Positions 47,032 to 51,022 of a stretch of 64,000 nucleotides of DNA are shown here, one piece after another (position 1 is the first letter of the stretch; every line of letters begins with the position of its first letter). Source of the stretch: Acidobacteriota bacterium (GTDB taxonomy: Bacteria > Acidobacteriota > Terriglobia > Acidiferrales > 2-02-FULL-67-57). Location: assembly GCA_037442885.1 (NCBI GenBank), contig JBBIPK010000007.1, forward strand, positions 4,093-68,092. Direction: 5' to 3'. The translations under genes were made by a program, and so were the position numbers. A model generated the notes under the pieces. That model did no database searches, had not been told where the DNA came from, and worked only from the letters and a program-made list of their open reading frames with translations.

Positions 47032-47177
47032 CTGCAGGCGGCGTTATTGTTCCCGATTCGTATGCCAAATGCAAACGCCGCTGCTTGCATCCTTTGCCCC
47101 CCTCCATCATCCAATAGTCGTTTGAGAACACCGTGGTCATTGGGCATACTGATCGGCAAGGCTTCGGGAGACGACGG

Positions 47178-47975
47178 GTGAAACGGAGTTGGAATTGGGC
47201 CATCTATGCGGGTTTTGCGGTCGTAGTGTTCGCGTTCGTCAGCTATTTTCTGCTTTTCAGCCAGTTTCCCCTCACGCGCGATTTCCCCTGGCTGAATCTG
47301 CTTCTGTTTGCGCTGGGGCTCGGGCTGCTCTGGACCGGCTCGCGGCGCGGCTGGCGCCAGCGCGAGCAATACCGTGGGCGTATCGCCGGGCCGACATTGG
47401 CCATGCTCAGCGTCCTCGTGCTGGGCTTTTTTCTCTTCTACAACTTCTCCTTTTCGGCCCAACTGCCCGAGTCCCGTGGCGCGCCCAAGGTGGGTGAGGC
47501 CGCACCGGACTTCACTCTGCCGGATCAGGAAGGCAAGCCGGTCAAGCTTTCCGAGCTCCGGGGGCAACCCGTTTTGCTGGTTTTCTACCGCGGCTACTGG
47601 TGACCCTTCTGCAACTCTGAGCTGCGCGGTCTGCAGCAGCACCTGGAAGAATTCAAGAAGCGCAACGTCCGCCTGATCGCTGTATCCGTGGATCCGCCCG
47701 AGCAAAGCAAGAAACTGGCCGCCGACCGCGGCTACACCTTCCCGATTCTCTCGGACGCGGAACGCCGCGTCATTCGACACTACGACCTCGTCCATCCCGG
47801 CGGAGGCCCCGGCGGAACTGACATTGCGCGCCCGGCCGAATTCCTCCTCGACGCCGACGGCATCATCCGCTGGGTGAACCTGACCGAAAGCTACCGCATT
47901 CGCGCCAAGCCGGAAGATATCCTGGCCGTCATTGACCGGCTGCCGCTCGGCTCCCCTCAGCCCCCACCCAACTGA
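47178..47975 (+). CDS. Membrane-anchored peroxiredoxin-like (AhpC/TSA) selenoprotein, in-frame UGA at 47601-47603
   Basis: ORFs 47133..47603 and 47688..47975 are in one frame; readthrough gives FYRGYW-U-PFCNSEL (UxxC); GTG start with GGGAG RBS; three TM helices precede the thioredoxin fold. Confidence 0.88.
47621..47637 (+). promoter_or_regulatory. Putative bacterial SECIS hairpin
   Basis: GCTGC-GCGGTCT-GCAGC stem-loop starting 17 nt after the UGA. Confidence 0.65.
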
Positions 47976-48103
47976 CCCCTGTTGCGCCGCCCGCAGCGCT
48001 TGAGTATAGTTAGCCCGCGAGCGGGAAGTCGGCGCTCCGGCTTACGCGTGGAATCGCGTCTTCGCCCGGAGCGGTGCACGTCTAGGGAAAAGTGGAGGGC
48101 TCG

Positions 48104-48730
48104 ATGGCAAGTCTGCTGGCACGGCTGCTGCCGCAAGAGAAGAGTTTTTTCGTTCAATTCACCGCGGTCGCCGAGAACATCGAGGCCGGGGCCCGCGCAC
48201 TGGTGGACTTACTGGAAGACTATCGAGACGTCGAGAAAAAGATCGCCCACATCAAAGACCTGGAGCACCGCGGCGATCAAATGACCCACGAACTCTTTAC
48301 CCAGCTCAACCAGACGTTCATCACCCCCTTTGACCGTGAAGACATCTATGAGCTGGCGAGCAAGCTGGACGACGTGCTCGACCTCCTGGATGCGGCCGCC
48401 ACGCGCTTGGGCATCTATCGCATCGAAAGGCCGCGCGCCGGGGCCGCCGAGCTGGCCCACATCGTGCTGAAGTCCGCTGAAGCGATCCGGTCTGCCGTGG
48501 TGCAACTGGAGAAACACGACCGCATCTTCGACCACTGCGTGGAAATCAACCGGCTGGAAAACGAGGCCGACCGCATGGTCCGCAGCCTGATCGCCAAGCT
48601 GTTCGAAGAGGAAAAAAATCCAGTCGAAATCATCAAGTGGAAGGAACTGTTCGAAGTTCTCGAGATCGCCACGGACAAGTGCGAGGACGTTGCCAACGTC
48701 CTCGAAGGCGTCGTGCTGAAGAGCGCGTGA
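48104..48730 (+). CDS. DUF47 / PhoU-like Pit accessory protein
   Basis: LEHRGD, FITPFDREDI, LENEAD, DKCEDVA; upstream of pit. Confidence 0.92.
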   Translation: MASLLARLLPQEKSFFVQFTAVAENIEAGARALVDLLEDYRDVEKKIAHIKDLEHRGDQMTHELFTQLNQTFITPFDREDIYELASKLDDVLDLLDAAATRLGIYRIERPRAGAAELAHIVLKSAEAIRSAVVQLEKHDRIFDHCVEINRLENEADRMVRSLIAKLFEEEKNPVEIIKWKELFEVLEIATDKCEDVANVLEGVVLKSA

Positions 48731-48776
48731 GCCTCCCCACCTCTAGACCCCTGTCTGATTGAGCGGAGCGCACCGC

Positions 48777-49763
48777 GTGGAGACTACCAGCCTACTGGCT
48801 CTGATTGTACTGATGGCTCTCCTGTTCGAGTTTGCCAACGGCTGGAACGACGCCGCCAACTCCATCGCCACCATTGTCTCCACCCGTGTCCTGACCCCGT
48901 TGCCGGCGGTCGCCTGGGCAGCCTTCTGGAACTTCTTTGCCGCGTTTGTCTTTGGGACGGCCGTGGCCAAGACCATGGGCAAGGGTCTGGTTCACTTGGA
49001 GATGGTCAACGAGTACGTCCTTCTCACCGGCTTGATGGGAGCCATCATCTGGACGGGCGTCTGCACCTGGCTGGGGCTTCCCATCAGTGTTTCGCATTCC
49101 CTGATGGGAGGCTACGGCGGCGCCGCCGTGGCCAAGGCCGGCGTGGGCGCGATTATCGCGTCGGGATGGATCAAACCCGTGCTCTTCATTTTCCTGGCGC
49201 CCTTCGTGGGCTTGTTCGCCGCACTGGCGGTGACGGTCGTGACCAGTTGGCTGGTGCGCAATCAGGTGCCGCATCACGTCGACCGGTGGTTTCGGCGGCT
49301 GCAACTGGTATCGGCAGCGGGCTACAGCCTCGGGCACGGAACGAATGATGCGCAGAAAGGGATGGGAATCATTACCGCAGCGTTAGTGGCGGGTGGAGCG
49401 CTCCAGACCTATGAAGTTCCCTTCTGGGTCATCATCTCCTGCCACGCCGCCATTGCGGGCGGCACCGTGATTGGCGGCTGGCGCGTCATCAAAACCATGG
49501 GACAGCACATCACGAAGTTGAACCCCTTCGGCGGCTTTGCAGCTGAAACCGCCGGCGCTGTAACCCTGTTTGGAACCGCGCAAGCCGGCATCCCGGTAAG
49601 CACCACGCACACGATTACCGGTTGCATCATCGGAGTGGGAGCGGCGCGAAGGCTGACCGCGGTGCGCTGGGGCGTGACCCGGCGCATCCTCTGGGCCTGG
49701 ATTCTGACCATCCCCGGCGCTGCCGCGCTCGGTGCCCTGCTCTATGCCGTGCTCGGCAGATGA
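48777..49763 (+). CDS. pit: PiT family inorganic phosphate transporter
   Basis: [12 protein letters not shown] and HGTNDAQK signatures. Confidence 0.94.
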
Positions 49764-49852: not shown

Positions 49853-51022
49853 ATGGCTTCGCCACACGTCCAATTTGCCACCATCGAAGAGGGGATCGAG
49901 GAGATTCGCGCCGGGCGAATGGTCATCATCGTGGACGATGAGGACCGCGAGAATGAAGGCGACCTGATGGTCGCGGCCGAAAAGGTCACGCCGGAAGCCA
50001 TCAACTTCATGGCCAAGTATGGGCGCGGCTTGATCTGTCTGACCTTGACCGCCGAGCGCTGCGACCACCTGCGCCTGCGCTCGATGACGGACGAGAACAC
50101 CTCCCCCTATGGCACGGCCTTCTGCGAATCCATTGACGCCCGCCACGGCATCTCCACCGGCATCTCCGCCGCAGACCGCGCGGCAACCATCCGCACGGCC
50201 ATTGACCCGGCTGCACGGCCCTCCGACCTGGTGCGTCCCGGGCACGTCTTCCCCCTGCGCGCCCGCAAAGGGGGTGTGCTGGTGCGCGCCGGCCAGACAG
50301 AAGCTTCGGTTGACCTGGCGCGGCTGGCCGGTCTGACGGCGGCGGGAGTCATCTGCGAAGTCATGAACGACGATGGCACGATGGCCCGCGTGCCTGAGCT
50401 CGCCCAGTTCAGCCGCCAGCACGGGCTGCGCATGATCACGGTGGCAGACCTGATCCGCTACCGCCTGCGCACCGAGCGCTACATCCGGCGGATTGCCGAG
50501 GGGCTGCTGCCGACTCGCTTCGGCGAGTTCCGGCTGCTGGCCTTTGAGTCCGAGATTGACGGCGAGCAGCACGTGGCGCTGGTGAAGGGCACCATCACCG
50601 GAGAAGAGCCGGTGCTGGTGCGGGTGCATTCCCATTGCCTCACCGGGGACATCTTCGGCTCGGCGTCCTGCGACTGCCAGCAGTTGATTGAGCGGAGCCT
50701 GGAGATCATCAGCCGAGCAGGGCGCGGCGTCTTCGTCTATCTGCACCAAACCGGGCGCGGCTTCAGCTTGGAGCGTGAGCAGGAGCGCACCACCATCGTC
50801 TACCACACGCACCGGCACGCGAACCCCACCGACCCGGCTCACCAGCGCCAGATTCAACGGGAATCCGGCATCGGGGCGCAGATTCTCTCCGACCTCAACG
50901 TGCGCGAGATCCGGCTGCTGACCAATCATCCCCGCAAGGTCGTCGCGCTCGAAGCCTTCGGCATCCGCATCGTCGAGCAAGTACCGATTCCTCTCAACAC
51001 GCGTGTGGCAGAAACGGAATGA
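49853..51022 (+). CDS. ribB: DHBP synthase RibB fused to a degenerate GTP cyclohydrolase II domain (RibBX-like)
   Basis: [26 protein letters not shown]; GCHII half keeps C-X10-C-X-C but lacks EGRGIGL..K..AY and the C-terminal tail. Confidence 0.9.

Follow-up and report, generated by a model that had tools for sequence, protein, structure and literature searches.

We analysed a 64,000-nucleotide (nt) stretch of contig JBBIPK010000007.1 from an Acidobacteriota bacterium (assembly GCA_037442885.1), hereafter called the window, with a focus on the region 47178–47975 of its forward strand. This region is predicted, with a probability that we place at about 0.85, to be one intact selenoprotein gene in which the UGA at 47601 is read as selenocysteine (Sec). 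The reading at 47595–47612 (+) is TAC TGG TGA CCC TTC TGC, followed by AAC TCT GAG, and the TGA triplet at 47601–47603 lies in the frame that opens with the GTG at 47178 and closes with the stop at 47973–47975. If the TGA is taken as Sec, a single unbroken frame of 265 residues results, which carries the motif FYRGYW-U-PFC-NSE. Standard open reading frame (ORF) calling yields two pieces, 47133..47603 and 47688..47975. Because one match to the AhpC/TSA family (Pfam PF00578) spans the TGA, a normal stop at this position would cut the thioredoxin fold at its active site. The features of the locus are collected in Table 1.

The start codon at 47178 is backed by the N-termini of homologues in a 40-sequence alignment (M-K/R-R-x-x-N-W). 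An alternative start, the GTG at 47133, was rejected in favour of 47178 on the basis of these N-termini and of the changes upstream of 47178 in L191, which look non-coding-like. L191 is a syntenic relative that aligns to the window at 88% nt identity over 14 kb. The source names attached to homologues include ‘Terriglobia bacterium’ and ‘Candidatus Acidiferrales’, and on this basis we describe the gene as common in Terriglobia-type genomes.

Table 1. Features of the predicted selenoprotein gene and its surroundings, in window coordinates (aa, amino acids; TM, transmembrane; Prx, peroxiredoxin; pLDDT, predicted local distance difference test; SECIS, selenocysteine insertion sequence)
Feature	Position	Strand	Evidence and remarks
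Promoter-like site TTGAGA-17-CATACT	47122..47150	+	Consensus match only; 28 nt upstream of start codon; 1 found vs 0.1 expected in shuffles
Predicted selenoprotein coding sequence	47178..47975	+	GTG start, 265 codons including Sec142, terminal TGA 47973–47975
TM helix 1, aa 7–25	47196..47252	+	Hydropathy; AlphaFold helix, pLDDT about 90–98
Loop motif P-L-T-R-D-F-P-W, aa 31–38, between TM1 and TM2	47268..47291	+	R34 invariant in 40-sequence alignment
TM helix 2, aa 38–60, then strongly basic loop SRRGWRQREQYRGR (6 K/R)	47289..47357	+	Hydropathy, AlphaFold
TM helix 3, aa 70–94, then S-A-Q-L-P	47385..47459	+	Hydropathy, AlphaFold; matches signal-peptide region of Cys paralogues
AhpC/TSA (Prx-fold) domain, aa 105–232	47490..47873	+	PF00578, 2.7e-39; spans TGA
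UGA, predicted Sec142 of W-U-P-F-C	47601..47603	+	Sequence, conservation; aligns to Thr/Ser of Prx PxxxT/SxxC
TGC, Cys145, predicted resolving partner	47610..47612	+	Aligns to Prx peroxidatic Cys (ApBCP C49, AhpE C45); nearly invariant in 40-sequence alignment
SECIS candidate hairpin GCUGCGC-GGUCU-GC(A)GCAGC	47621..47640	+	−8.4 to −10.3 kcal/mol; apical loop GGUCU at 47628–47632

Selection and conservation across the in-frame UGA

In comparison with L191, the ratio of non-synonymous to synonymous substitution rates (dN/dS) is 0.16 over the 140 codons before the TGA and 0.20 over the 123 codons that follow. Out-of-frame readings of this downstream DNA give ratios of 1.01 and 2.54 and contain 3–4 stops. 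Downstream substitutions fall mainly at third codon positions (23 of 38), and the terminal stop occupies an equal position in both sequences, as TGA in the window and as TAA in L191. A first-pass annotation of this DNA had pointed to an in-frame TGA at a redox position with the fold continuing after it, and both the single PF00578 match across 47601 and the downstream dN/dS bear this out.

Narrow peptide patterns proved too query-specific as a means of finding relatives, since they gave mostly distant Cys homologues, and they were replaced by whole-genome searches that read through stops. These searches gave AhpC/TSA-type hits in 120 of 301 genomes of the class, often several per genome, and nearly all of the class-level hits listed contain exactly one in-frame TGA. 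In each of the 30 class-level loci fetched, the TGA occupies the same place in F-Y-R-G-(Y/H)-W-TGA-P-x-C. Within the window's own family, six more genomes carry full-length TGA orthologues (58–64% identity), and across many genomes the TGA is kept at 50–64% protein identity. Judged from these comparisons, the TGA at 47601 is far beyond chance, as the same codon stands in every homologous locus inspected. An assembly or sequencing error that conceals a true TGC or TGG is, in our view, a negligible prospect: the genome is a draft of 69 contigs, but the independent assemblies of L191, of L142/L143/L176 and of all other orthologues carry the same TGA.

A more conventional reading would treat the TGA as a genuine stop, which leaves either a pseudogene or a 141-aa membrane protein plus a downstream fragment. 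This is the default of gene callers, and it is well represented in databases. A protein search found 976 relatives, and among the 120 matches listed, 65 are calls of ~150 aa that end exactly at ...YRG(Y/H)W, fragments for which the NCBI name is ‘hypothetical protein’. The minimum free energy of the wider region, discussed below, is also unremarkable. Even so, we consider a genuine stop extremely unlikely, given that purifying selection acts on the downstream half, with its frame kept, as it does on the upstream half, that one fold would be severed at its active site, that the TGA is conserved at such protein divergence in many genomes, and that Sec machinery and a SECIS candidate are present.

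The database also holds 21 JGI ‘peroxiredoxin’ entries (P0003–P0052) in which the Sec position is occupied by W (YW-W-PxC). They have the appearance of calls made on short contigs with a code that equates TGA with Trp, which would be an annotation artefact that hides selenoproteins. The earlier expectation that standard annotation would split the gene is realised in the 65 truncated calls, with the 21 JGI calls reading W.

True Cys at the Sec position occurs in entries P0004, P0012, P0014, P0018, P0021, P0048, P0051 and P0054, and at loci L021, L138 and L139. Aligning homologues, as had been suggested in the first-pass annotation, therefore returned Cys or TGA at the exact position, and the in-frame UGA stands where homologues have Cys. 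We rejected the idea that the Cys forms are due to lost Sec machinery, because genomes G301 and G310 still carry selA and because the Cys forms are signal-peptide paralogues. In a few full-length homologues, namely P0011 (314 aa, on a 7.3-Mb NCBI contig), P0040 and P0025, the place of Sec/Cys is taken by Ser (GHA-S-PFCN), Gly or Glu. Such proteins may have lost or changed their activity, or the residues may be sequencing artefacts.

Selenocysteine machinery and genetic code of the genome

A search of the genome (2.69 Mb in 69 contigs, 64% GC) found selA (581 bits), selB (390 bits), selD (361 bits) and one tRNA-Sec, the product of selC (69.9 bits, anticodon UCA), all above curated cut-offs. The complete selA/selB/selC/selD set that a selenoprotein in the window had been said to imply is thus present. 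TGA is the commonest stop, closing 882 of 1,808 long open frames, and the UCA anticodon is carried solely by tRNA-Sec, with no suppressor tRNA in the genome. Because TGA ends so many frames and tRNA-Sec is the sole UCA tRNA, TGA is not reassigned genome-wide.

These findings also bear on the suggestion that near-cognate or suppressor decoding inserts a standard amino acid at the UGA (Trp, Cys, Gly or Arg). We regard this as very unlikely, even though the JGI calls give W and one homologue has G and another E at the site. Besides the lack of a suppressor tRNA in the genome, the restriction of UCA to tRNA-Sec and the prominence of TGA as a stop, the Cys in homologues makes up a classic Sec/Cys pair, and the hairpin described below is kept only in TGA forms.

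Two other genes of this genome, both outside the window, have the hallmarks of selenoprotein genes. The frame of selD (C22:5014–5940, −) is crossed by a single TGA (KAAG-U-ASKL) with a strong hairpin of 10 bp behind it, whose loop GGU lies at +24; the SelD of this organism is accordingly itself a selenoprotein. At C46:14368–14850 (−) lies a second AhpC/TSA selenoprotein, a true Prx of the TxxU type (AFTGG-U-TKEL), with hairpin loop GGC at +27.

A candidate SECIS hairpin

A stem-loop 3′ of the UGA with a G in its apical loop, as in bacterial SECIS elements, is found at 47621–47640, which corresponds to +21..+40. It lies inside a block of 45 nt after the Sec codon that has zero changes relative to L191, while the rest of the downstream half diverges by 11.4% (P about 0.004). 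L142 is more distant, and in it codons +5..+14 match the window at 30 of 30 nt; the flanking blocks share only 3–6 of 10 third positions. Loci L142, L143 and L176 carry the same TGA, and the 45 nt that follow it equal those of the window apart from two synonymous differences among the first six. The window's hairpin sequence is also present in the groundwater contig L142/L176 and in L191, and L137 has an independent hairpin in the window's register (GCUGCA-AGGUU-UGCAGC).

Orthologues carry a hairpin of the form AACUCCG-AGUUR-CGGAGUU at +13..+31 from the U of UGA. In 21 sequences, 93.9% of cells are paired and 4 of 7 pairs have changed on both sides, whereas control slides by 1–3 columns give pairing of only 21–57%. 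Codon choice follows the same constraint in 80 metagenome loci, where Glu is GAG in 80 of 80, Leu is UUG/UUA in 78, Arg is CGG in 78 and Ser is UCC in 77. These loci were retrieved with a back-translated pattern in which synonymous sites were free and the TGA was fixed, so that they are informative on codon choice only. The pattern was aimed at the ‘NSELRGLQ’ lineage, but YTN also matches Phe, and mostly ‘NSELRGF’ orthologues were returned. Only two sequences with the window's hairpin variant, L176 and L191, were recovered in this way.

The window sequence, UCU GAG CUG CGC GGU CUG CAG CAG, weakens the orthologue-register hairpin to −3.3 to −4.5 kcal/mol and creates a new hairpin about 8 nt downstream of that register. 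With the peptide NSELR essentially unchanged, the hairpin thus stands at +13..+31 in most orthologues and at +21..+40 in the window, L191, L142 and L137, a shift that may represent SECIS turnover through synonymous changes in the window's lineage. The TGC paralogues L021, L138 and L139 have nearly the same peptide (NSDLRS), encoded by GAC CUG CGC AGC, and no hairpin. Furthermore, the SECIS loops of selD (+24) and of the TxxU-type Prx gene (+27) in the same genome also begin with GG.

The hairpin had earlier been matched to the apical part of the Escherichia coli fdhF SECIS, and this comparison holds in part. The octamer GGTCTGCA, at 47628–47635, is present in the fdhF SECIS, and the hairpin that contains it is under nucleotide constraint. 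The 46-nt fdhF element used for reference has a 100% match under fdhF in 5,419 genomes. As a bare 8-mer, however, GGTCTGCA is at chance level (2 found versus 2.37 expected in the window) and its presence is not significant. It carries weight because it is located in the loop and 3′ arm of the local hairpin. Both elements are hairpins just 3′ of a UGA with an apical loop GGUC and the common octamer GGUCUGCA, the latter at chance frequency. The window element differs in that its loop lies at +28 rather than +22, its stem is shorter and it has a bulged A in place of the bulged U of fdhF.

At gathering thresholds, Rfam returned no SECIS family, a tRNA-Val and a borderline V_AS9 being the only matches. 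The V_AS9 match (a Vibrio antisense RNA) lies at 49965–50052 (−), just past a PitA-like gene, and its 50.9 bits barely exceed the gathering score (50). In an unrelated GC-rich genome such as this, the match is probably false.

The catalytic domain

The domain that spans the UGA has a Prx fold. Its best structural matches are Bcp4/BCP/PrxQ and AhpE, with template-modelling scores of 0.87–0.91 and root-mean-square deviations of 1.7–1.8 Å, and ResA follows slightly behind (0.81–0.85). In alignments to 2cx3 and 1xvw, U142 aligns to the Thr/Ser and C145 to the peroxidatic Cys of the Prx motif PxxxT/SxxC, and R138 replaces the Pro, so that of Pro, Thr/Ser and Cys only C145 is kept. The canonical catalytic Arg (ApBCP R122, AhpE R116) aligns to P219. 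A nearly invariant R218 lies one position earlier, and a nearly invariant A-R-P-A-E-F block adjoins the canonical position. The active site is most aptly viewed as a W-U-x-x-C motif of thioredoxin type set in a Prx fold, which we take to be the ‘PRX-like1’ arrangement of NCBI CDD. The first-pass description of a UxxC peroxiredoxin-like domain therefore stands with regard to the fold and the UxxC motif, but the protein is not a canonical peroxiredoxin, as Sec occupies the Thr position of PxxxTxxC.

The protein stays below the cut-off of every NCBIfam model. The best match is ResA (NF002854; 75.2 bits versus a cut-off of 170), and scores for TlpA (30.7 versus 230), DsbE (19.7 versus 123) and PrxU (NF040737; 46.6 versus 270) likewise fall short, with Sec three residues upstream of the peroxidatic position in the case of PrxU. 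Like the PrxU proteins (TxxU, e.g. from Eubacterium acidaminophilum), one of which is encoded on C46 of the same genome, the window protein would be an AhpC/TSA-fold selenoprotein. In PrxU, however, Sec takes the place of the peroxidatic Cys, whereas the window protein has Sec at the Thr and keeps a Cys at the peroxidatic position (UxxC). With TlpA, ResA and CcmG it shares a W-C-x-x-C-type motif (W-U-P-F-C in the window), a predicted extracytoplasmic location and a membrane tether. Unlike them, it has three anchor helices instead of one and Sec in place of Cys, its fold is closer to BCP/AhpE, and its score is far below the ResA cut-off.

The first-pass annotation had noted that AhpC/TSA-like selenoproteins are known, and the PF00578 UxxC type does have entries in published catalogues, as ‘Prx-like thiol:disulfide oxidoreductase’ (PF00578, UxxC/UxxU; PMC13188914 Table 1) and as ‘Prx-like 1’ (pfam00578, UxxC; PMC2398784 Table 2), a selenoprotein family whose prediction goes back to Kryukov, Zhang and Gladyshev. 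The window protein combines PF00578 with UxxC and can be matched to Prx-like 1 by family description: Sec comes first in UxxC, Cys homologues are far more numerous and function is unassigned.

A predicted three-helix membrane anchor

A three-TM anchor had been proposed from the sequence, and the same arrangement emerges from two methods. Hydropathy analysis gives three segments with Kyte-Doolittle values >1.5 over 19 residues (~aa 6–33, 36–54 and 67–94), and these correspond to the AlphaFold helices at 7–25, 38–60 and 70–94. The AlphaFold model of the whole protein is confident (pLDDT 94.9; predicted template-modelling score, pTM, 0.88). Because loop 2 holds 6 K/R residues, the positive-inside rule places this loop in the cytoplasm and gives an N-in/C-out topology, which answers the call of the first-pass annotation for a topology prediction. 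The Cys paralogues of the window's family (L021/L138 and L139) have a signal peptide in place of the three-TM anchor, and at the site of TM3 and the ensuing SAQLP of the window protein this peptide is cleavable (...LLAFASNAAA, cut before QLP). The catalytic domain is predicted to face the periplasm. Within the TM3 coding region there is also a terminator-like stem with a T-run (47405–47426, +), in which the T-run encodes ...GFFLF...; for this region such structures are within chance level (2 found versus 1.4 expected).

The anchor module comprises about 100 aa and includes the conserved motif P-x-T-R-D-F-P-W. As a sole query it retrieved 336 clusters (50%-identity representatives), mostly short or truncated. 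One relative, P0263 (408 aa), has the same three-TM module (44% identity over residues 1–88) fused to an alpha/beta-hydrolase (Peptidase_S15/S9-like) and not to a redoxin. The module may be a portable anchor.

The fusion to a membrane anchor had been singled out as the unusual part of this protein, and no description of a polytopic membrane-anchored form came up in the literature searched. A full-text search for membrane-anchored, membrane-bound or transmembrane peroxiredoxins found nothing bacterial of the polytopic anchored kind. Neither of the two catalogue papers mentions a membrane anchor, and the one that lists Prx-like 1 contains 0 occurrences of ‘membrane’ or ‘transmembrane’ (PMC2398784), in contrast to the conserved module and motif of the window protein. 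The conserved three-TM module is the new part, and the catalytic type is already catalogued.

Proposed mechanism and substrate

We propose that SelB and tRNA-Sec would decode the UGA at 47601 as Sec, directed by the hairpin at 47621–47640, and that the three N-terminal TM helices (N-in, C-out) would tether the Prx-fold domain to the outer face of the cytoplasmic membrane. At this site the U142 selenolate could attack an oxidised substrate, which might be an envelope-protein disulfide or sulfenate, or a peroxide. C145 would then resolve the adduct to form an intramolecular selenenylsulfide, which in turn would be re-reduced by electrons that cross the membrane via a CcdA/DsbD-type periplasmic thiol relay. 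A DsbD_TM/CcdA homologue is encoded on C24 of the genome and is a possible electron supply. Selenium incorporation, topology, electron donor and substrate are the parts of this explanation that we infer, and the intact gene, the conserved UGA and RNA element, the Sec machinery and the fold and motif positions are those that we observed. Reduction of protein disulfides or sulfenates seems to us a little short of an even bet as the activity on the substrate, reduction of peroxides or lipid hydroperoxides has a distinctly smaller share, and the remainder goes to other reactions.

The nearest biological precedent comes from Caulobacter crescentus, in which PrxL (PRX-like1, CXXC) and PprX are envelope proteins kept reduced by ScsB/TlpA, and in which PprX is a real envelope peroxidase (PMC3322552). 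We liken the window protein to this pair, which are extracytoplasmic Prx-fold proteins that rely on a DsbD-family electron relay. PrxL has two Cys without the other stringently conserved Prx residues, and in the window protein, likewise, the Cys is the only part of the Prx signature that is kept for certain. In contrast, PrxL and PprX are soluble Cys proteins with signal peptides, whereas the window protein is predicted to be polytopic, membrane-anchored and Sec-containing, and no ScsB linkage was seen.

The same gene, Sec decoding and topology could also serve an enzyme that is chiefly a peroxidase, in which U142 or C145 reduces hydrogen peroxide (H2O2) or membrane lipid hydroperoxides, on the outer side of the membrane, in the manner of GPx or Prx and the selenenylsulfide is recycled. 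We hold this to be possible, with the odds somewhat against it. True peroxidases (Bcp4, AhpE and PrxQ) are the closest folds, slightly ahead of ResA, and C145 takes the position of the peroxidatic Cys, but the Pro and Thr of the Prx signature are replaced by R138 and U142. The A-R-P-A-E-F block sits beside the canonical catalytic-Arg position, although that Arg itself aligns to P219 and R218 is one position off. Tight membrane tethering (pTM 0.88) would suit lipid substrates; against a peroxidase, W-C/U-x-x-C is a thioredoxin-type motif. Caulobacter offers a precedent on each side, with an envelope peroxiredoxin pathway exemplified by PprX and a PRX-like1 CXXC protein, PrxL, that showed no peroxidase activity (PMC3322552).

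A bolder proposal joins the three-TM module and the Sec redoxin domain into one membrane enzyme of a kind not described before, which would be widespread among Terriglobia of soil and groundwater and would attack oxidants embedded in the inner membrane, at its outer face. It might be a GPx4-like lipid-hydroperoxide reductase or a quinone-linked selenol/thiol couple, and the P-x-T-R-D-F-P-W loop would then be part of the substrate site and not of a passive tether. We consider this idea speculative and unlikely.

Several observations weigh against the tethered Sec oxidoreductase that we favour. The window hairpin has a short stem (5–7 bp) and is displaced by ~8 nt in the 3′ direction from the consensus hairpin of the orthologues, and no more than three independent sequences support it (the window/L191 lineage, L142 and L137). 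A wider fold of 76 nt (47595–47670) is no better than shuffles (z = +1.77), and only the short local hairpin is meaningful. The topology is based on the positive-inside rule and on the comparison with paralogues. When the neighbourhoods of relatives were compared, no conserved neighbour gene suggested a partner or substrate. Finally, Caulobacter PrxL, which comes closest among the characterised CXXC proteins of the Prx-like1 type, is of no known function, and peroxidase activity could not be detected for it (PMC3322552).

An operon-encoded electron donor was considered and dropped, as the genes found repeatedly downstream are limited to DUF47-like and PitA genes, and these to the close family, with no recurrent redox partner. 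In the window itself, the region directly downstream (48092–49763, +) holds a DUF47/PhoU-like ORF and a PitA-type phosphate transporter ORF, with identities assigned by eye.

Implications for selenoproteins in Acidobacteriota

Acidobacterial genomes and metagenomes from soil and groundwater commonly contain the clade to which this gene belongs, and yet it is almost always mis-annotated, either as a 150-aa ‘hypothetical protein’ plus a fragment or through a Trp call. A survey in 2006 counted 4 selenoproteins in Acidobacteriota (PMC1794560). Genes for Sec-containing Prx and Prx-like proteins seem far commoner in the class than this number, and correct calls would raise the known selenoproteome of the phylum. 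The family also provides a natural set of Sec forms with a hairpin and Cys forms without one, which encode near-identical peptides and constitute a clean case of SECIS constraint on codon choice. Moreover, correct calls would add a polytopic membrane-anchored architecture to the Prx-like selenoproteins, and they would point to a need for selenium in the redox defence of the envelope of aerobic soil bacteria.

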